Virus record (IMG/VR): IMGVR_UViG_3300026484_000295
Span: 64,001-128,000 of that record
Length of the DNA stretch: 64,000 nucleotides
Strand: one strand, 5' to 3'
From: a virus
A program made the position numbers and the translations under genes. Shown in pieces: positions 7,834 through 61,472 of the stretch (its first letter is position 1; every line of letters starts with the position of its first letter). Below the pieces are notes generated by a model. That model worked only from the letters and a program-made list of their open reading frames with translations. It had not been told where the DNA came from and did not search any database.

Positions 7834-7894
7834 ACTAATATTCTAAAATTAACTTTTAATAAATACAGATTATAAAATTATTATTTTACAATTT

Positions 7895-9616
7895 TTAATA
7901 TTTTTTTAAAATGCGTTTCCCACTATCTGTATAAATTAAAAATCCATTCATCAACATATTTTCTTTGATAGTTAGATTATTATCATATAATTCTATATAA
8001 GCCATTACATTAGTATGATCTAAACTATTACATGGAATAAATATATCCTTTTTATTATAATACAATGATTCCGAGATTGACCCTTCAAAACTAAAGTTAA
8101 TCTTAAAAAATAAATCTAAATATAAATTAAATCTCCTATCAATAGATACTATTATAGATTTATCAATCAATGATAAAATATCTATAAATGGATTAGTATT
8201 AAAATCTATTTCTGGATATATTGCAAATTGTTTAATTTCTATATTTTTTTTATGATTTGAAATCCCCATTACAGCTAGGAGTTCATTATTAAAAAATGCA
8301 CCATACATTTTTGTAAATGGTAAACTGATATTATATAAATGTTCATTTAAAAAATTAAAGCCCGTTGTTGTATCAATCATTTTAATTTCGAGTTCATCAA
8401 CATCCATTTTTTTTATTTTGTATTTTAATTTATAAAGTATAATTTGCTTGCAATACTCTTCATAATATGACCATTCGTATTCATAAAATTGTATTAAGTT
8501 TATATCTAAATTATCAGCATTTAAACTATTATCAATATAAGATGTATCTTTAGAAGTTGATGGCGATAAAATCTCTATAATAATATTTGTTTTTAAAATT
8601 TCTACTTTATCCAATTCTACTATCTTAAAATTATATCCTATCAAACCTAAAAAGCACTGGATTTTATTTAAAATATTTTTTCTATTATCTAGTATAGGAT
8701 TACATTGAGCACAAATAGGCAAATTATTAATATCAATTACGCTTTTAATTATACTATTACATGTCTTACATTTAAAAGTGTAAATATATTCGCTATCATA
8801 TATTTGCAAATCATCAATAAGAGTAACAAATATATTATCTTTAAATTTTTCAAAAATTTTATTATTAGTAGCGTTATCAATTTTTGATATAGATATAGGG
8901 TTTTTTTGTGCAGAATAACTGTCATATTTTGAAATAATTGTATTTTTACGTTTTTCTAAAATAGTTTTATTCTTTATAGGAAATATAGTTCCAAATTTTT
9001 TTAAATTTGTATCGTATGCTTTTTTTCTAATATAATCTAATGATAAAGGGTTGGGTACACCATACTTCATTAAATTAGTGGTTATTGTTTTATTTCTAAT
9101 TTCCTGAGATTGTTGAGCGTATTCCACACCATATTTCTCTATCATTGTTTTTTTTATTTTTTCTTTTGTACTATCCAATTTTGCAATAGAATCTACACCA
9201 TATTTTTCTTTAACTGTTTTTTTTATTTTTTCTTTTGTACTATCCAATTTTGCAATAGAATCTACACCATATTTTTCTTTAACCGATAATTTCAATTTCT
9301 TTTTTTGTTTATCATTTTGTAAAGGGTGTTCTGCCCCATAATTTTTAAGAAAGGTTATTTTTTGATTGTGTTCTTTTGAACAGCCTAAATTAAATATATT
9401 AGTACGTTCATTAAATGAGGCATACTTCGAACAATTTTTAAATTGGCATTTTGGAGGAGCATCCATATCCCTTATCAATAAATACCATTGGGCTTTTATA
9501 GATAAAGTCGGGTATCTCTTATTTAGATACCCAATAAGTTCTTTTGAAAAGTTTTTAAAATAAATATTTTTTTTAGTCTTATAATATTCAATTTCTGCTT
9601 TTAATTTAATTTCCAT
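7895..9616 (-). CDS. Hef-like homing endonuclease family protein (KYGV repeats, Zn ribbons, apparently degenerate nuclease, C-terminal GNAT-like domain)
   Basis: CQFKNC...C...H; tandem KEKYGVDSIAKLDSTKEKIKKT repeats; CKTC...CAQC; INLIQFYEYEW; FLNEH...YGAFFNNELLAVMGI. Confidence 0.6.
   Translation of the reverse strand: MEIKLKAEIEYYKTKKNIYFKNFSKELIGYLNKRYPTLSIKAQWYLLIRDMDAPPKCQFKNCSKYASFNERTNIFNLGCSKEHNQKITFLKNYGAEHPLQNDKQKKKLKLSVKEKYGVDSIAKLDSTKEKIKKTVKEKYGVDSIAKLDSTKEKIKKTMIEKYGVEYAQQSQEIRNKTITTNLMKYGVPNPLSLDYIRKKAYDTNLKKFGTIFPIKNKTILEKRKNTIISKYDSYSAQKNPISISKIDNATNNKIFEKFKDNIFVTLIDDLQIYDSEYIYTFKCKTCNSIIKSVIDINNLPICAQCNPILDNRKNILNKIQCFLGLIGYNFKIVELDKVEILKTNIIIEILSPSTSKDTSYIDNSLNADNLDINLIQFYEYEWSYYEEYCKQIILYKLKYKIKKMDVDELEIKMIDTTTGFNFLNEHLYNISLPFTKMYGAFFNNELLAVMGISNHKKNIEIKQFAIYPEIDFNTNPFIDILSLIDKSIIVSIDRRFNLYLDLFFKINFSFEGSISESLYYNKKDIFIPCNSLDHTNVMAYIELYDNNLTIKENMLMNGFLIYTDSGKRILKKY
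9146..9283. repeat. Two perfect 69-bp tandem repeats inside the Hef-like gene
   Basis: Direct repeat encoding the 23-aa KYGV unit. Confidence 0.9.
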
Positions 9617-9622
9617 AACATA

Positions 9623-10855
9623 TTATTTTGTAGCCAACCATTCTTTTCTGATTGAGGCATTATCATCAAAAAAGATTTGCATTAATTCATCTAAATGACC
9701 TTGATCGGTAATATTAAAGGCGTATTCCTCTAAATTTGAAAATACGTACTCCCAATCCGGTTTTTGCATAGAACCCAACCCTTTAAAGTAATCTATTTTC
9801 CACGAATCATCAACTGTACCAGATTCTTTAGCTTCATCAAATTCCTGTCTATTTGAATAATACAATACTTTTTTACCTTTTTTTGCAGCAATCATAGGAA
9901 ATACAATTCTATTGATAAATGGATTTTCATGATCCCAAAACAATTCTGGGAAATATTCATGAAATAAATTAACAACAAGATTATTAATGGCACTTCCGTC
10001 TGGGTCAGCATCAGTAGCTATATAAATTTTTGAATATTTTAATTTTGTATCAAAAGCAGGTCGCAACCATTTATGAAATCTATCTAATTTAGCATCAGAA
10101 TTAGCTTTTTTAATCTCTATATTTTGTGTTGATTTTGGTATTTTTTTAAGTAGCATGGATACCCTATGCCATTTTTTATCAAAATATACTTCATCAATAT
10201 CATTACAGATTAATGTTGTTCTACCTATTTTAACTTCATATTTAACACCATTTTTTCTAAATCCTCTAAATTCCCATTTTCTTCTAAAATGAAAGTAATC
10301 TGGATCTGAAAGATCAGAAATTGTAGCATCACTCGCTTCTATTTTTTGAATGTAGCCACGATATAATTTTTCATTATCTACTAATTCATCAACACTAACC
10401 CATTTTTTATTTAAGTGAAATTTATCTTCTGAGCTAACAATTACTGTTTTAATTATAGGCTCACCTTCCTTATCAACTTCAAAAATACTTTCAAATGTCA
10501 CCTCATATATGCGTGCATTATCACTAATCACCCAATCACCCATTTGTTCGTTAAACTCTAAATTTATTGCTGTAATTATATCAGCTACTTCATCATTATT
10601 CATTGCATCTATTGGTGCCTTACCATAGACATTTAAAACTTTACCTTTTAATGGCATTCCAGCTTGTGTTTCTGGATCTCTAATTTCAGTAAACGAAGCT
10701 ATTGCAGAATTATGTGTCAATAATCCATTTTCAAGAATAAATGTTTCATTATCTTCTACTTGTATATCATTCATATTAATGACTTTATTAGTACTATAAA
10801 CACTATTAATTTCTACCATATCAAATTCATCAATATTTATTTCATTCAATTGCAT
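9623..10855 (-). CDS. Type II DNA topoisomerase, C-terminal (TOPRIM) half of a gp39/gp60-like subunit, fused to an N-terminal split-intein C-fragment
   Basis: After ...LLTHN: SAIA...PLKGKVLNV, KYSKIYIATDADPDG, YFKGLGS, FDDNASIRKEWL; no GHKL ATPase domain; own TAAGGAG RBS. Confidence 0.9.
   Translation of the reverse strand: MQLNEINIDEFDMVEINSVYSTNKVINMNDIQVEDNETFILENGLLTHNSAIASFTEIRDPETQAGMPLKGKVLNVYGKAPIDAMNNDEVADIITAINLEFNEQMGDWVISDNARIYEVTFESIFEVDKEGEPIIKTVIVSSEDKFHLNKKWVSVDELVDNEKLYRGYIQKIEASDATISDLSDPDYFHFRRKWEFRGFRKNGVKYEVKIGRTTLICNDIDEVYFDKKWHRVSMLLKKIPKSTQNIEIKKANSDAKLDRFHKWLRPAFDTKLKYSKIYIATDADPDGSAINNLVVNLFHEYFPELFWDHENPFINRIVFPMIAAKKGKKVLYYSNRQEFDEAKESGTVDDSWKIDYFKGLGSMQKPDWEYVFSNLEEYAFNITDQGHLDELMQIFFDDNASIRKEWLATK
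10709..10855 (-). mobile_element. Split intein C-fragment (IntC, 49 aa)
   Basis: Block F/G pattern MNDIQVEDNETFILENGLLTHN followed by Ser+1. Confidence 0.88.
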
Positions 10856-10957
10856 TTAATCTCCTTATGTTATGTTTATTTTACATTTTTTTATGCCACA
10901 ATCTAAAACTTCTATCAATATCACTCTTATTAATTTAATAGTAATGAAATTATATTA

Positions 10958-11236
10958 TTATTTGGGTAGTTCACCAACCAAATATTTTTTTATTAATTCA
11001 TCAGGGTAGTCTTCTTTAAACTACTTATATAACGATTCAAATTTATTATATTGTCTGAAATTAGTGTTTGATATGCAATTGTAGTTTTTATAAGGTTCTA
11101 TGTTAGTTTCAATTTTATATTGGTGTTCAAACTAACCAAATGATGGTATAAGTGAAACGTAATAAATGTCTTCTCTTATACCAAAATAATATTTTAAGAT
11201 GTCGATTGTTTTAAGGTTCTTATTACTGTACGTCAC
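10958..11236 (-). pseudogene. 93-codon frame interrupted by two in-frame TAG stops
   Basis: GTG...NLKTIDILKYYFGIREDIYYVSLIPSFG*FEHQ...ESLYK*FKEDYPDELIKKYLVGELPK*; fills most of the gap between clpP and the topoisomerase half. Confidence 0.45.
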
Positions 11237-13388: not shown

Positions 13389-13619
13389 CTATTCTTGAAT
13401 TAATAGATGATCAATTTGAATTTTTAAATCTTCCATCTTTTTCATAGTTAATTCTTTAGTTTTAGAATCCCATATACCCCATAAATGCGAGGGTGATGAT
13501 TTGACTATCCGATCTGATGTTTTAAAAATATATTTGTAAACTCTTTCTTCCGGTTTAAATTCTATGTCTAAAATTGGTAAAGTTTTAAAAATTCTACCAT
13601 CATCTAATCTAGCAATCAT
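13389..13619 (-). CDS. Stand-alone intein/Hint middle fragment (block B region, no extein)
   Basis: LDDGRIFKTLPILDIEFKPEERVYKYIFKTSDRIVKSSPSHLW...KKMEDLK matches the IntN pattern from about residue 30 onward; an in-frame TGA lies 4 codons upstream of the ATG. Confidence 0.65.
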   Translation of the reverse strand: MIARLDDGRIFKTLPILDIEFKPEERVYKYIFKTSDRIVKSSPSHLWGIWDSKTKELTMKKMEDLKIQIDHLLIQE

Positions 13620-14659: not shown

Positions 14660-14704
14660 ATAAAATAATCCCTTTTTAGAGATTATTTTACATTTTTTTT
14701 AATT

Positions 14705-24815: not shown

Positions 24816-27800
24816 ATGGGTTTAATCGTTAAACACGCAGATGGGAGTGAATTCCTTAATATTGCGAATAAAACATATGATGATGTATCAACAAGTTTAA
24901 AATTACCAGGTAAAGGTGTTTTAAATTGGGGTGAGGCATATGTAAATAATTTTGTACACTTACTAGAAAATTTTGCTAGTTCAATTGAACCACAAAACCC
25001 ACAAGTTGGTCAATTATGGTATAATACGGGTTCAGGTGTTTTATCAGTTTATACAATAGGACAAGAATGGGAAATAATTAATAAAGATACGGATATTGAA
25101 GCTAAATTTGATGCTTTAGTTGCTGAATTACAAGAAAGTAATGCAGGGACTATACCTCCAACAGATGTATCTATTGGTACTACTTGGTTCGATACAAACG
25201 TAAACGTATTAAAAGTTTTTAATGGTACTGAATGGGTTTCATTTGGTTTCAATTCAATAGCATCTTTTATTCAACCTAGTGATAGCGAGGCGTCAGATTT
25301 ATGGTATGATAAGAATATTAATAATCTTAAAGTTTATGACGGTTCACAATTTCAAAGGTTAATTTCGACTATTGAAAGTACAAATCAACCAACTAATTCG
25401 CCTGTTGGTCAATTTTGGACAAATACTACAACAGGTCAAATATTTATATACAAACAAGAACCATCTACAGGTGAATATTATTGGCAAGAATTAGGAGCAG
25501 AAATTGTTACAGAAGGTGATGTTTTACCGACCGTTGCCAAAACTGGTGCATTACATATAACTCGTACATCTTTTTCAAATATCCTATATATTAATAAAGG
25601 TACTAAAACTTCTCCTGTATGGGTTGAAATTCCAGAATTTGGTGGCGCTATAAAATCCGTAAATGAGCCTGTTGATGCTAAAGATGGTATGTTTTGGTTA
25701 GATGGGAATGATGTATTAAAAATTAGAAAATCTGGAGTATGGACAGATATTGACCAAACTGCAATTTCATATATTTCCGAAACAATGCCAACAGATGCTA
25801 AAGATGGTATGATATGGTTCGATACTTCAACTGGTTCTATGAAAATTAAAGTTGGAAGTAATTGGGAAGCTGTACAAGATACAGGATTAATTGAATATGG
25901 TGTAGCCCCAATTTCACCAAAAGAAGGACAATTATGGTTCGATAATACAAGATCTGAACTAAAGATATTTAACGGCACTTCGTGGATAGTTGTTAATAAT
26001 TCAAGTACTATCGTAAGTTATCAAACCCCGTTAGATGCTACTACTGGGCAATTATGGTTAGATACTACAAGTTCAGAATTAAAAGTTATGAAAGATGGAA
26101 GATGGGCCGCTTTACCAGAAAATGCTAGAGCACATCTAACAATTCCTGCTAGTCCTAAAAATGGTGATATGGCTTATGTTAATAACGCATTAAAAATATA
26201 TGATGGTTCTGATTGGAAAGATATTAATATAAATATCGATAATAGTACAACAGGAGATAATGTATCAATTAATTATGATGAAATTTCACATGAAATAGTT
26301 ATAGTTTCAGATGGTATCTCAACAAGAGTGCCTCTAGCAGTTAGTAGAGACGTTATTGTTGAGAATGTGGGTATAACATCTGACGTTGTTGAAGTTATAC
26401 ACCCAGATATAAGTGAGGGCGAACGAAGAATTATTAATATACAGAAGGTTAATTTAAATAGATCTTTTTTCGTTTTTAGAAATGGTAGATTTACTGATAA
26501 TTATTATACAGACTCCCAGGATTTAATTCTTAATAATGCGGCTGGAGATGATGAAATCGATATTTTACAATTTAATGGCGATATTTCTATAAATTATATA
26601 GTTAAAAAATTTAAATCAACTATTAATGGCAATTTTACTATTGATAACTATACTAGAACATTAGAAGAACAAGAAGAATACGATATTATTAAAGCTGAAT
26701 ATGATGCTAAGCTAGTTGAATTAATCGCACAGTACGGCGATAATAGTTCTGAAAGTGATTTAACTGATGCTGATTGGACTATATTGGATGAAATCGAAAG
26801 TAGATTCCCTGTTAAAATATCAAATCAAATAGCAGATTTATCATTAGGGTCTATTATAGTATTTAAAGAGGGTATTTTTATACCCACAGACGATTTATCA
26901 ATCAATGAGTTAAATGAAAATAAAATTATTATTCCTAACACGAATGCAGGCGAAATTTATACAATCATACAATTGATTGCGGGTAATGACTATAAATCAT
27001 CATTCTTCAATCGAGAAAATTCTTTTACTATTGGATCAGTTGAAGATACAACAGAATCAGCTCTAAATGTTGCAGGTAAAATGATGACTGATATGCTTCA
27101 AGCTGCTTCAAAAAATACTGCTGGATATGGTGAAGTTGATGTAGATTATGTTTTTAACAATACTGAAAAAACTGTTACCTTCAGTTTGATGAATATTGAT
27201 ACAAACTATCATTTCTTTGTAACTAGAAATAATCTTTTTGTTTCACCAGTAAATTATACAGTAGATACAATTAATAACACATTAACAATGCATGCTAATT
27301 CTTTAGATGAAATACGATTTTTTCAATTCTATTTACCACATAATTATGTACCTATTGAATTTAATTACAAAGAAGCTTTAGCTGCAAATGAAGGATGGAT
27401 AACAATCGAATTAAGTCAAGATTTTGACTTAAATAGTCCTCTACTAGTATATAGAAATGGTATGCTACAAGAATCAGCAAACATCAATATTATTACTCAA
27501 GAAACACTTGTTGATGATAATGGCATTACATATACCGTTGATGGATTAAGAAAAGTACAAATTTTTGGAGATGCAGAAACAAATGATGAATCTGTATCTG
27601 GAGTACAAATAGGTGATATCGTAACTATTATGCAAGTTTCACAACCGGAATTTTATAATATTTATTTAGAAGAATTTGGTGCAACAGTTGATGGTTTTAA
27701 TATTTTTACCTTTAATGATATAGACAGCCAAAAAGATATCTTAGTATATAGAAATGGTATGAAATTAGATGATGTAAGTTTCTATATTAATGATGATGGC

Positions 27801-59149: not shown

Positions 59150-59632
59150 TTATTTTAATAACTCCATTCTTAATGATTCTATGGATTCACTTATAATATC
59201 ATCATCTAAATCTCGTAATGATGGATTATTTCTTAAAAGTCTTACAATATTAGCTTTATTCCATAATTTATTATTTCTTCTATTCATTCGCATATTTCTT
59301 TTTTCTGAAAAAATATCAAATGGTATATCAATATAATTTAAAGTATCTTTATAAAAACGTACAAAAGTAAAATCAATATTACAACCTTTTGTAGCTTTCT
59401 TTTCTGCTTCATCAAGAATCTTTTTAATTTTTGAAATATTTCGCATAAAAACATATTTAAAAAATGATCGATATGAAGTATGACCTTTGTAATAATATAT
59501 TGACATCAGTTCATATTCAATTTTGTTCAGTTTCGATTTCACTAAACATGTTTTAATTTCTTTACCATATGAATCATCAGTTACATTATTACGTTTTTTT
59601 AATAGTGATGATAAACTTCCGAATAAACTCAT
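59150..59632 (-). CDS. Hypothetical basic protein
   Basis: 160-aa ORF abutting the tape measure gene. Confidence 0.6.
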   Translation of the reverse strand: MSLFGSLSSLLKKRNNVTDDSYGKEIKTCLVKSKLNKIEYELMSIYYYKGHTSYRSFFKYVFMRNISKIKKILDEAEKKATKGCNIDFTFVRFYKDTLNYIDIPFDIFSEKRNMRMNRRNNKLWNKANIVRLLRNNPSLRDLDDDIISESIESLRMELLK

Positions 59633-59690
59633 ATAAAATCCTTTTATTTAATATAACTATTTATTCATTTTTTTTATTTTTTTCTTTAAA

Positions 59691-60365
59691 TTAAGTATTT
59701 TGTAATCTAATATTACGTTTATCAATTTCTAAATAACTCAACCATCGCTTATAAGAAACTTCTTCAATAACTTTTATTTCTTCAGCTTTATAATTTCTAT
59801 ATGCTAATGAAAGTTCTGGAATGATTTTTCTAACCATTTCGATTGTTAAAATTGGCATTTTTCCACTTTTTATTCGTGGTCCATTAATTTTTAAAATTTG
59901 TTTAACAAAGAATTCACGAAATACCGGTATTAAATAATGTAAGTTAATAGCATTAAAATTTTGAAACTTACTATCATAGGAATTTAGAAAAATTACTAAT
60001 GGGAATGGATCATGTTGATAATTTTTATATTTTATCTGATACATTTGTCCTAATTTTATTCCTCGTACAATTTTAATATGATTAGTTTTCCAAACGGCAC
60101 TATCTTTATAATCAGTAACTAGATCTAATATCGAATCTAATAATAATTTTGTATTATTTTTATATTTTCTTTTTAGTATTTCGTATTCTTTTAAGTCATA
60201 TTTTGTTTTATATGAAAAATAGTTCATAAATTGATCTCTAATATCTGGAGTCATATTTTTTAAAAATTTATAATGTAATGGAAGAGTTTTATCGGTAGTG
60301 GATAATAATTTATCAAATAATTTTTTAAGTTTTCTATCAATTTTGGGTTTAATTCTAATTATCAT
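59691..60365 (-). CDS. DNA end protector gp2-like
   Basis: GQMY...Y....D.FPLV.......F.AINLHYL...R motif. Confidence 0.8.
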   Translation of the reverse strand: MIIRIKPKIDRKLKKLFDKLLSTTDKTLPLHYKFLKNMTPDIRDQFMNYFSYKTKYDLKEYEILKRKYKNNTKLLLDSILDLVTDYKDSAVWKTNHIKIVRGIKLGQMYQIKYKNYQHDPFPLVIFLNSYDSKFQNFNAINLHYLIPVFREFFVKQILKINGPRIKSGKMPILTIEMVRKIIPELSLAYRNYKAEEIKVIEEVSYKRWLSYLEIDKRNIRLQNT

Positions 60366-60407
60366 AAATTCACCTTTTAATTTTATTTATGATAATTAGA
60401 ATTAAAA

Positions 60408-60434
60408 TTTAATAGGGTATTCAAACCCTATTAA
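60408..60434 (-). terminator. Hairpin terminator
   Basis: TTTAATAGGGT...ACCCTATTAAA just after the stop of 60441-61472. Confidence 0.65.
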
Positions 60435-60440
60435 AAATAA

Positions 60441-61472
60441 TTATTTAAGTATTTTACTACTAGCCTTCATATGTTTACCTTTGTTTCTCATATGTTTAAG
60501 AATACCAGGTATCAAAACAAATTGTAAATATTCATCTGAATATGCTTTACCCGTAGCTTGTTTATGAGCTTTTGCTGCTTTCTTAACATGTTTTCTTAAT
60601 TTACCAGTTAATTTATCCATTGATAAATCTTTGATATCTTCCCCACCATGTAATTTTGGATTTTTCATATAATATTTTTTTGCATCTTTAGCTTTTTTCT
60701 GCGCACATTGAACATCACCAGGCTTACATCTAGTAAGTTTTTTCTCAATTAAAACTGTTGCACCTTTAGCTTTTCTTAATAAATTAGCTCCATCTTCATC
60801 TTCTGCTTCTGCTAATATTTCTTCATTAACTTGTGCCATTTCTTCTAATAAATCTTCTGTATCTTCATAATCATCTAAAAATTCCATTAATGATTCACCC
60901 TCATAATCTTCAGAATCAAAGTCAATTACACCTTCATTTATAGCTTTTTCTAATTTATTAGAAATTTCTTCTACTGTTTCTACTAAATCCATAGTTTCAA
61001 CAGAATCATCAAGATCTAAATCTTTTGCAGCTTCTACAATATCAAATACCATTTCAGCTGGTAATGATTCAACTGTTTCTTCTCCTAACATCTCTGTTAA
61101 TTTATTTGTTACGATTGATAAAAGTGTTACTGATGCTGTTTCATCTTCTTCTAAAAATTCTATATCAATATTTTCAATATTATCTAGTGCTTCTTCAATT
61201 ATTAATTCTGGCTTAGAAGCATTTTTTCTAGCAGATTCTAAAATAATATTTAAAATTTTTGAACCATCAACTGTTTCAGCTATAATTTTAGCATTTTCAT
61301 CTGTTTGTGTTTCTACAAATTCAACCAAGTAATCTAAATGATGTACTATATCAAATTCAATATCAGTCCCTTCTTCTAGAATTGTTTCAATAAGATCTAA
61401 CTTGGATTCTGATAATGTTCCTAATTTTGACTCAATGTCTTCAACGATTTCAACGATTTCAACAAACTTCAT
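60441..61472 (-). CDS. Putative prohead core/internal head protein
   Basis: Very acidic N-terminal two-thirds rich in (I/L)xE sites, basic C-terminus; TATAAATA at 61506-61513. Confidence 0.5.
   Translation of the reverse strand: MKFVEIVEIVEDIESKLGTLSESKLDLIETILEEGTDIEFDIVHHLDYLVEFVETQTDENAKIIAETVDGSKILNIILESARKNASKPELIIEEALDNIENIDIEFLEEDETASVTLLSIVTNKLTEMLGEETVESLPAEMVFDIVEAAKDLDLDDSVETMDLVETVEEISNKLEKAINEGVIDFDSEDYEGESLMEFLDDYEDTEDLLEEMAQVNEEILAEAEDEDGANLLRKAKGATVLIEKKLTRCKPGDVQCAQKKAKDAKKYYMKNPKLHGGEDIKDLSMDKLTGKLRKHVKKAAKAHKQATGKAYSDEYLQFVLIPGILKHMRNKGKHMKASSKILK

Follow-up and report, generated by a model that had tools for sequence, protein, structure and literature searches.

How can a giant phage make the large subunit of a type II topoisomerase when the gene is cut inside the catalytic motif of the enzyme and its other half is missing from the neighbourhood? 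The question is raised by an open reading frame (ORF) located at positions 9623-10855 on the minus strand of a 64,000-nucleotide stretch of viral DNA, here called the window, which comprises bases 64001-128000 of the 172,404-bp IMG/VR contig IMGVR_UViG_3300026484_000295 (G000; completeness 61% by CheckV). Coordinates given without a contig name are window positions. The ORF is intact, starts with ATG and encodes 410 amino acids. Judged by its sequence, it is the C half of a T4-type (gp39, GyrB-like) topoisomerase II large subunit, placed behind the C-terminal fragment of a split intein (IntC). The complete subunit is very probably made by protein trans-splicing from two dispersed genes, about 116 kb apart and on opposite strands in the relative where both were found. 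The parts of the C half and its start region are the following:

10861-10866, minus strand: ribosome-binding site AAGGAG, 5 nt before the ATG of the C half, read straight from the sequence
10709-10855, minus strand: IntC, the 49-residue C-terminal split-intein fragment with blocks F and G, reading ...MNDIQVEDNETF...LLTHN
9623-10708, minus strand: C-extein, i.e., Ser+1 (S50) and all that follows of the topoisomerase II large subunit, stop codon included
9998-10012, minus strand: TOPRIM metal-binding motif DxDxD (D282, A, D284, P, D286), all three Asp being invariant in the alignment of C halves

Residues 1-49 of the C half terminate in ...DIQVEDNETFILENGLLTHN (in a longer form ...MNDIQVEDNETFILENGLLTHN), and residue 50 opens SAIASFTEIRDPETQAGMPLKGKVLNV. 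According to BLASTP, S50 corresponds to the Ser right after ...LLGEGD in the contiguous large subunit of Agrobacterium phage Atu_ph07 (residues 410/411), and residues 411-603 of the same protein are matched by the C-extein in two blocks with E-values of 2e-12 and 6e-25. In the family profile, residues 47-103 align to T4 gp39 416-472, GD/SAIGYLIDVRDKELHGGYPLRGKVLN, where the slash marks the cut. The first-pass annotation of this DNA had proposed a large subunit cut at EGD/S by a split intein and had given the gp39 sequence at the junction; both the cut and the gp39 sequence proved right. The C-extein contains, in order, the TOPRIM part that follows EGD, an insertion, the DxDxD motif and TOPRIM_C. 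Pfam models for Toprim (PF01751, residues 269-302, E 2e-7) and TOPRIM_C (PF16898, residues 318-408, E 2e-11) were matched above cut-off, while the C-terminal end of the Intein_splicing model (its positions 120-155) was matched sub-threshold at residues 13-49. The ORF as a whole was assigned to phrog_543 (E 7e-47), and the top fold match of its AlphaFold model was the central domain of T4 topoisomerase II, 8yo3_C (Foldseek E 2.8e-10). Matches of residues 12-49 to GenBank phages were also obtained, and were rejected as a chance likeness between the last strand of the intein and the TOPRIM strand that precedes EGD. The best-matching GenBank phages, Atu_ph07, Yersinia fHe-Yen9-04 and Vibrio 1.081.O, have contiguous large-subunit genes.

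Where the other half resides could be answered from related contigs. The first-pass annotation had reported that the window is devoid of a GHKL ATPase ORF, that the catalytic TOPRIM Glu must come from another polypeptide and that the partner gene is not adjacent, and all of this was borne out. No GHKL or gyrB-type ORF was detected in the window or in all 172,404 bp of G000 (PF00204, PF02518). Neither tblastn of this contig with the Atu_ph07 large subunit nor a search with the N half described below returned an N half, which leaves 97.5 kb on one side of the C half and 73.6 kb on the other side free of it. Close relatives of the C half were present in three IMG/VR contigs. In contig G001 (289,880 bp, 87% complete) the C half is 95% identical to the window ORF, and among the records examined this contig alone carries both halves:

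G001 59244-60476, minus strand: C half
G001 176790-178421, plus strand: N half, an ORF of 543 codons matching Atu_ph07 1-412 (E 1e-48) and phrog_543 (E 3.9e-91)

In the N half, the GHKL ATPase is accompanied by the transducer and by the first TOPRIM strand, which ends in ...SEGD (precomputed PF02518 and PF00204), so that the catalytic Glu is indeed carried by another polypeptide. After ...AFSEGD the protein runs on as a 95-residue N-intein (IntN) beginning with Cys, CIDSNTKI...ISFSKNHKHPIF...HKLLRKKGL, which contains SKNHKHP. The window sequence and G001 are close over most of their length, G000 15893-172404 being collinear with G001 189-158243 at 81-93% identity, and the N half is missing from G000 because the contig ends 18.5 kb short of the N-half locus. 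As for the sample itself, 100% of the sampled words from the C-half locus were present in run X1, a hydrothermal-vent metagenome, which is probably the source of the window's phage. No RNA data set was listed for the locus, which has no bearing on whether it is expressed. A 13.3-kb contig from this run (Logan) is collinear with the N-half locus of G001 over the whole 13.6 kb. Its piece over the N-half ORF differs at 363 of 4105 bases, i.e., about 91% identity, similar to G000 versus G001 elsewhere, and all three indels relative to G001 fall outside the N-half ORF. The flank of the N-half locus is kept in G001, in a further contig, G004, and in the X1 contig. The concern, voiced at first pass, that the genome might hold no intein-bearing N half is thereby answered by G001 and by the matching locus in X1.

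Both halves are widespread and conserved. Protein clusters of the same length and architecture numbered 57 for the C half (47-95% identity) and approximately 60 for the N half (58-100% identity). D30 (the block F Asp), T38, F39, H48, N49 and S50 were invariant in 24 aligned C halves, and E446-G447-D448-C449 together with the block B residues S507 and H510 were invariant in 19 aligned N halves. In the N half of G001 the N-terminal nucleophile, C449, directly follows E446-G447-D448, and block B reads S507-K-N-H510, aligning with S-E-E-H of the split intein gp41-1. The remainder of the intein is variable, with a mean pairwise identity of 0.44 for IntN and 0.39 for IntC residues 1-27, versus 0.71-0.83 for the exteins. 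Selection on the chemistry would be expected to leave just this combination of invariant chemistry residues and an otherwise variable intein. Among active inteins, a His in block F is common, though not universal. Its replacement had been noticed already in the window copy (...DNETF), and the position is indeed occupied by Glu (E37) in at least 90% of the 24 aligned relatives. Purifying selection acts on the C half, as the ratio of non-synonymous to synonymous substitution rates (dN/dS) is 0.06 relative to the copy in G001. IntC has zero non-synonymous changes in this comparison, and 1 of its 147 bases differs, with a synonymous rate (dS) of about 0.4 elsewhere. Recent homing of IntC was not concluded from these figures, as nearby 150-nt segments show as few as 3 differences.

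Together, IntN (95 residues) and IntC (49 residues) make up 144 residues in which blocks A, B, F and G are all present, and they would constitute a class-1 intein, naturally split at the canonical site. Among solved structures, the best sequence match of IntN was the gp41-1 split intein (6qaz; E 0.006, residues 2-76). Prediction of a complex between IntN (residues 431-543 of the N half) and IntC (residues 1-100 of the C half) gave a score of 0.76, versus 0.00 for the best of three controls. Of 80 solved complexes 58 attained the mark set for this score, as opposed to 2 of 110 mismatched pairs, counts which are only a rough guide for IntN-IntC since our own alignments were used. Contacts agreed by at least 78% between runs, the partner had a predicted local distance difference test score (pLDDT) of at least 58, and the interface was formed by IntN 447-543 and IntC 3-50, comprising nearly every residue of IntC. 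The docking score may reflect likeness to split-intein complexes already solved, and is to be read as likeness and not as proof. A jackhmmer search over all ORFs of G000 and G001 for further copies of IntN and IntC returned only the fragments themselves.

Two other sets of sequences resembling N-intein pieces were recorded. Proteins P0186 and P0192 are more distant N halves (36-39% identity, 607 aa), which end in EG(L or D)/C with an alignable IntN and have about 65 additional C-terminal residues with a second S-x-T-H-like motif. In the window, a free-standing ORF of 76 codons at 13389-13619, minus strand, resembles an N-intein without Cys1 or extein.

After translation, IntN and IntC would dock into one HINT domain, in which the standard splicing steps would be carried out by Cys1, by the Ser-x-x-His of block B, by the Asp of block F and by the His-Asn at the end. 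The mechanism would as such be the one already known for canonical naturally split inteins. The predicted product consists of 448 + 361 = 809 residues, in which ...FSEGD-SAIASF... would again be continuous through the TOPRIM metal-binding site, and the junction peptide of the spliced subunit would be ...EGDSAIASFTEIR. Since the junction spans the metal-binding site, the enzyme could not be active before splicing. Such a scheme involves two genes, and both of them are preceded by the same promoter-like 13-mer, AAAATGTAAAATA, which is found 29 nt before the ATG of the N half in G001. The degenerate word AAAWTGTAAAATW has 4 matches in the window versus 0.38 expected, and 0 of 100 shuffles reached 4. 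The sites are:

10877-10889, minus strand: promoter-like 13-mer AAAATGTAAAATA, 21 nt before the ATG of the C half, also a site of AAAWTGTAAAATW
7882-7894, minus strand: site of AAAWTGTAAAATW
14684-14696, minus strand: site of AAAWTGTAAAATW
26561-26573, minus strand: site of AAAWTGTAAAATW
G000 41129, 153825 and 156622: sites of AAAWTGTAAAATW elsewhere in the contig
G001 176748: site of AAAWTGTAAAATW and 13-mer of the N half

In G000 and G001 combined, the word stands 21-35 nt upstream of the topoisomerase N half, the C half of a B-family DNA polymerase (PolB), a Dda-like helicase and an SbcC-like nuclease, as well as of a thymidylate kinase, a GTP cyclohydrolase and a small polymerase piece. 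At the C half the 13-mer overlaps a sigma-70-like site, TTTAGA-18-TAAAAT. The T4 late-promoter word TATAAATA was not enriched, with 29 matches versus 29.5 expected. We regard AAAWTGTAAAATW as a putative replication-class promoter, and as both halves carry the motif of the phage's replication genes, they are probably expressed together.

Several points weigh against trans-splicing. The argument for it is drawn from sequence comparison and a structural model, and the promoter motif is likewise a consensus-type one. The N half is known from a 95% relative and from the X1 contig, where substitutions could hide a stop codon. No gp52/GyrA-like partner was found in the contigs of the clade, and the product is a putative complete topoisomerase II. 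With Glu at the site of the block F His, splicing kinetics may be unusual. The same Glu, kept in at least 90% of the clade, would also suit intein fragments that serve as a non-covalent assembly module without any splicing, similar to the supposed role of the T4 gp39 and gp60 tails, and T4 does assemble the same enzyme from unspliced pieces (PMC11461880). However, Cys1, the block B Ser and His, the block F Asp, the His-Asn and Ser+1 are invariant across approximately 60 clusters, against an average identity of 44-55% in the remainder of IntN and IntC, and docking alone would not keep chemistry residues fixed; moreover, an unspliced HINT domain of 144 residues would sit in the TOPRIM metal site. 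We therefore consider a purely structural role of the fragments unlikely. It is very improbable, too, that the C half is a decaying relic of a broken topoisomerase gene without a working partner, as might be thought from a 172-kb contig in which both an N half and a gp52-like gene are missing. The frame is intact, dN/dS is 0.06, the catalytic residues are invariant in 57 clusters, the 95% relative has an intact N half, to which a locus in run X1 corresponds, and the gene is equipped with a ribosome-binding site and the promoter-like motif common to replication genes.

The intein could also consist of three pieces, with the 76-residue product of the ORF at 13389-13619, minus strand, as the middle fragment. 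This ORF is 2.5 kb upstream of the C half, and by eye it has a block B-like S-x-x-H and a ...DHLL... tail. Yet IntN and IntC already carry blocks A, B, F and G between them and are predicted to dock directly, and BLASTP revealed no similarity of the 76-aa ORF to the IntN of the topoisomerase; we give a three-piece arrangement very little credence. Extremely unlikely, finally, is an assembly artefact, in which the halves would in reality be adjacent or the contig would be chimeric just upstream of 10855. All sequences are metagenome assemblies, and a small indel-rich gap is located directly upstream of the gene (G000 74894-75040 versus G001). Against an artefact, four independent contigs originating from at least three samples agree in gene order, the collinearity of G000 with G001 extends through the locus over 156 kb, and the N half is embedded in a conserved flank of its own in G001, G004 and the X1 contig. 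The assembly break upstream of 10855 that had been feared at first pass was thus not found. Trans-splicing of two dispersed halves remains the reading that we prefer.

The C-extein differs from contiguous relatives by a 165-residue insertion in TOPRIM (residues approximately 105-270), which is absent from them and conserved in the split clade, where it contains the invariant motif PDYFHFRR...RGFRK. Folded alone (AlphaFold2), the insertion reached a pLDDT of 86 and consisted of two similar beta units:

10268-10543, minus strand: unit 1, residues approximately 105-196, beta-rich, with a weakly HINT-like fold
10046-10267, minus strand: unit 2, residues approximately 197-270, homologous to the "unique TOPRIM insertion" formed by the T4 gp39 tail and the gp60 head

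Unit 2 was superimposed on 8yo3_C 475-545 with a VIA-align Z-score of 7.3 and a root-mean-square deviation of 2.3 A over 68 residues (22% identity). A hidden Markov model (HMM) of unit 2 only, applied to the T4 gp39 tail plus gp60 head, gave 26.6 bits and an E-value of 5.9e-5 at Z = 177,635 (the size of the PDB), and the alignment of the family profile with T4 continues through unit 2. Unit 1 repeats unit 2 (hhalign E 1.9e-4 over 30 columns). Compared with more than 20 intein and HINT structures, unit 1 gave VIA-align Z-scores of 2.3-4.9, and hhalign revealed no sequence similarity between unit 1 and the topoisomerase intein; Foldseek searches of the insertion against PDB and BFVD gave nothing significant. 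Unit 1 could thus be a decayed intein, or it may merely have a common beta arrangement, and we treat an origin from an intein as a lead offered by the models. The T4 insertion of about 70 residues has been described as lacking in the other homologues of gp39 and as helping the split subunits to assemble (PMC11461880). As the break between T4 genes 39 and 60 is inside a domain that is contiguous here, the insertion is probably older than the split, i.e., it probably pre-dates the mobA-associated gene split rather than having arrived with it.

No partner subunit of the gp52/GyrA type was found in G000-G004 with a protein query, PF00521, phrog_551 or an unfiltered local three-sequence HMM (best E 0.74). 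These five contigs are 48-87% complete; G002 has 306 kb and G004, which originates from the same sample as G002 and carries an N half of 72% identity, has 122 kb. Since all contigs of the split clade are incomplete, the gp52 gene may lie in unassembled DNA. In two of the nearest non-split relatives that were checked, gp52 is within a few kb of the large subunit. About 100 further gp52 loci from IMG/VR and JGI metagenomes have a contiguous large subunit directly upstream of gp52, and none of these gp52-bearing loci has flanks like those of the window's phage. The medium subunits listed by a protein-database search were all at least 60% identical, and none was on a contig whose length fits the split clade. 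In the split clade, the place immediately after the C half is taken by an endonuclease-like gene. It is unlikely that the phage clade is truly devoid of a gp52-type cleavage subunit.

The endonuclease-like gene is part of a conserved neighbourhood. Four contigs, which represent at least three samples and show 65-95% identity, share the order clpP, C half, endonuclease-like gene and a 1094-aa gene, and the endonuclease-like gene follows the C half at a distance of 6 nt in G001, G002 and G003 as in G000. In the window it is located as follows:

7895-9616, minus strand: gene of 573 aa resembling homing endonucleases, 6 nt beyond the end of the C half, matching phrog_3339 and DUF7487

The matches are to phrog_3339 "homing endonuclease" (E 4.9e-23) and to DUF7487 (E 1.3e-29), the latter with tandem KEKYGV-type repeats. 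The gene is downstream of the C half and not between the halves, no endonuclease gene was found within 6 kb of the N half, and its link to the gene split is uncertain. A nuclease motif, ...EIDIYLP...IEYNG.FWH..., is kept in the 34%-identical copy of G002 and lost in the window copy. As the motif is lost and the gene is still under purifying selection (dN/dS 0.18), the product may have been domesticated as a DNA-binding protein. In G001 the counterpart of 10856-11222, located between clpP and the C half, is an ORF of 182 codons (L006 9383-9931) with no family match; in the window this segment is shortened relative to G001 and the frame is no longer open. Near the N half in G001, an ORF of 309 codons (L017 11129-12058, minus strand) matches thymidylate synthase families over about 100 residues only, corresponding to phrog_85 positions 392-466 of 866, and it may be another gene in pieces. 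PolB is likewise encoded with a split intein, outside the window. Its N part (G000:C1:20156-20959, plus strand) reads ...ISDTD/S... and has a Hint-like tail, and its C part (G000:C1:41177-42331, plus strand) opens with an IntC ending in ...ILVHN/SCYF. These halves share one strand, with about 20 kb between them, which makes dispersed split-intein genes a habit of this phage genome.

No report of a split intein in topoisomerase II or gp39 was found in the literature searched. A known case of dispersed halves is the cyanobacterial DnaE (Ssp and Npu), an essential replication enzyme that is encoded by two far-apart genes and joined by trans-splicing. The layout described here is nearer to that of DnaE, with its distant genes, than to that of phage fractured genes. 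The inteins at the cyanobacterial DnaE site are all split (PMC4760082). DnaE differs in that it belongs to a bacterial chromosome and has Cys+1, whereas the topoisomerase pair belongs to a phage, has Ser+1 and interrupts another host protein, and the two have no close sequence relationship. The fractured-gene inteins gp41-1, gp41-8, NrdJ-1 and IMPDH-1 (Dassa et al., 2009; PMC2677866) likewise reside in DNA-metabolism enzymes of uncultured phages, and they share class-1 chemistry, the canonical split site and short IntN and IntC. The native C-extein of gp41-1 also starts with Ser (PMC7090010). In contrast to the topoisomerase intein with its Glu, the fractured-gene inteins do not have the block F His replaced in this way, and the halves of a fractured gene flank an endonuclease gene on a single strand, whereas the topoisomerase halves are located on opposite strands at a distance of 116 kb. 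Seven of eight enzyme types are named by Dassa et al. (2009), and topoisomerase is not among them. T4 gp39, gp60 and gp52 (PMC11461880; PDB 8yo3) represent the same enzyme family, with a large subunit that is likewise in pieces. In T4, however, the cut was made inside the insertion by a mobA element, there is no intein and assembly is non-covalent, whereas the topoisomerase pair has an uninterrupted insertion, duplicated or extended, and is cut at EGD/S with an intein.

The finding provides a further natural split intein, and a well-supported one, located at the catalytic TOPRIM motif of topoisomerase II. With Ser+1, a split into 95 and 49 residues and a conserved block F Glu, it is a plausible candidate for an orthogonal ligation tool, and with Glu conserved where other inteins have the block F His it offers a natural experiment on what this His does. 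The homology of the insertion with that of T4 may matter more to T4 biology than the split intein itself, and together with the missing gp52 it provides the most useful leads. If gp52 is truly absent, the spliced GyrB-like protein would pair with the host GyrA or ParC, resulting in a phage-host hybrid type II topoisomerase that includes an extra TOPRIM domain of 165 residues. For the phages themselves, the locus indicates that the two halves of an essential enzyme can end up on opposite strands, 116 kb from each other, and yet be retained, apparently under a shared type of promoter.

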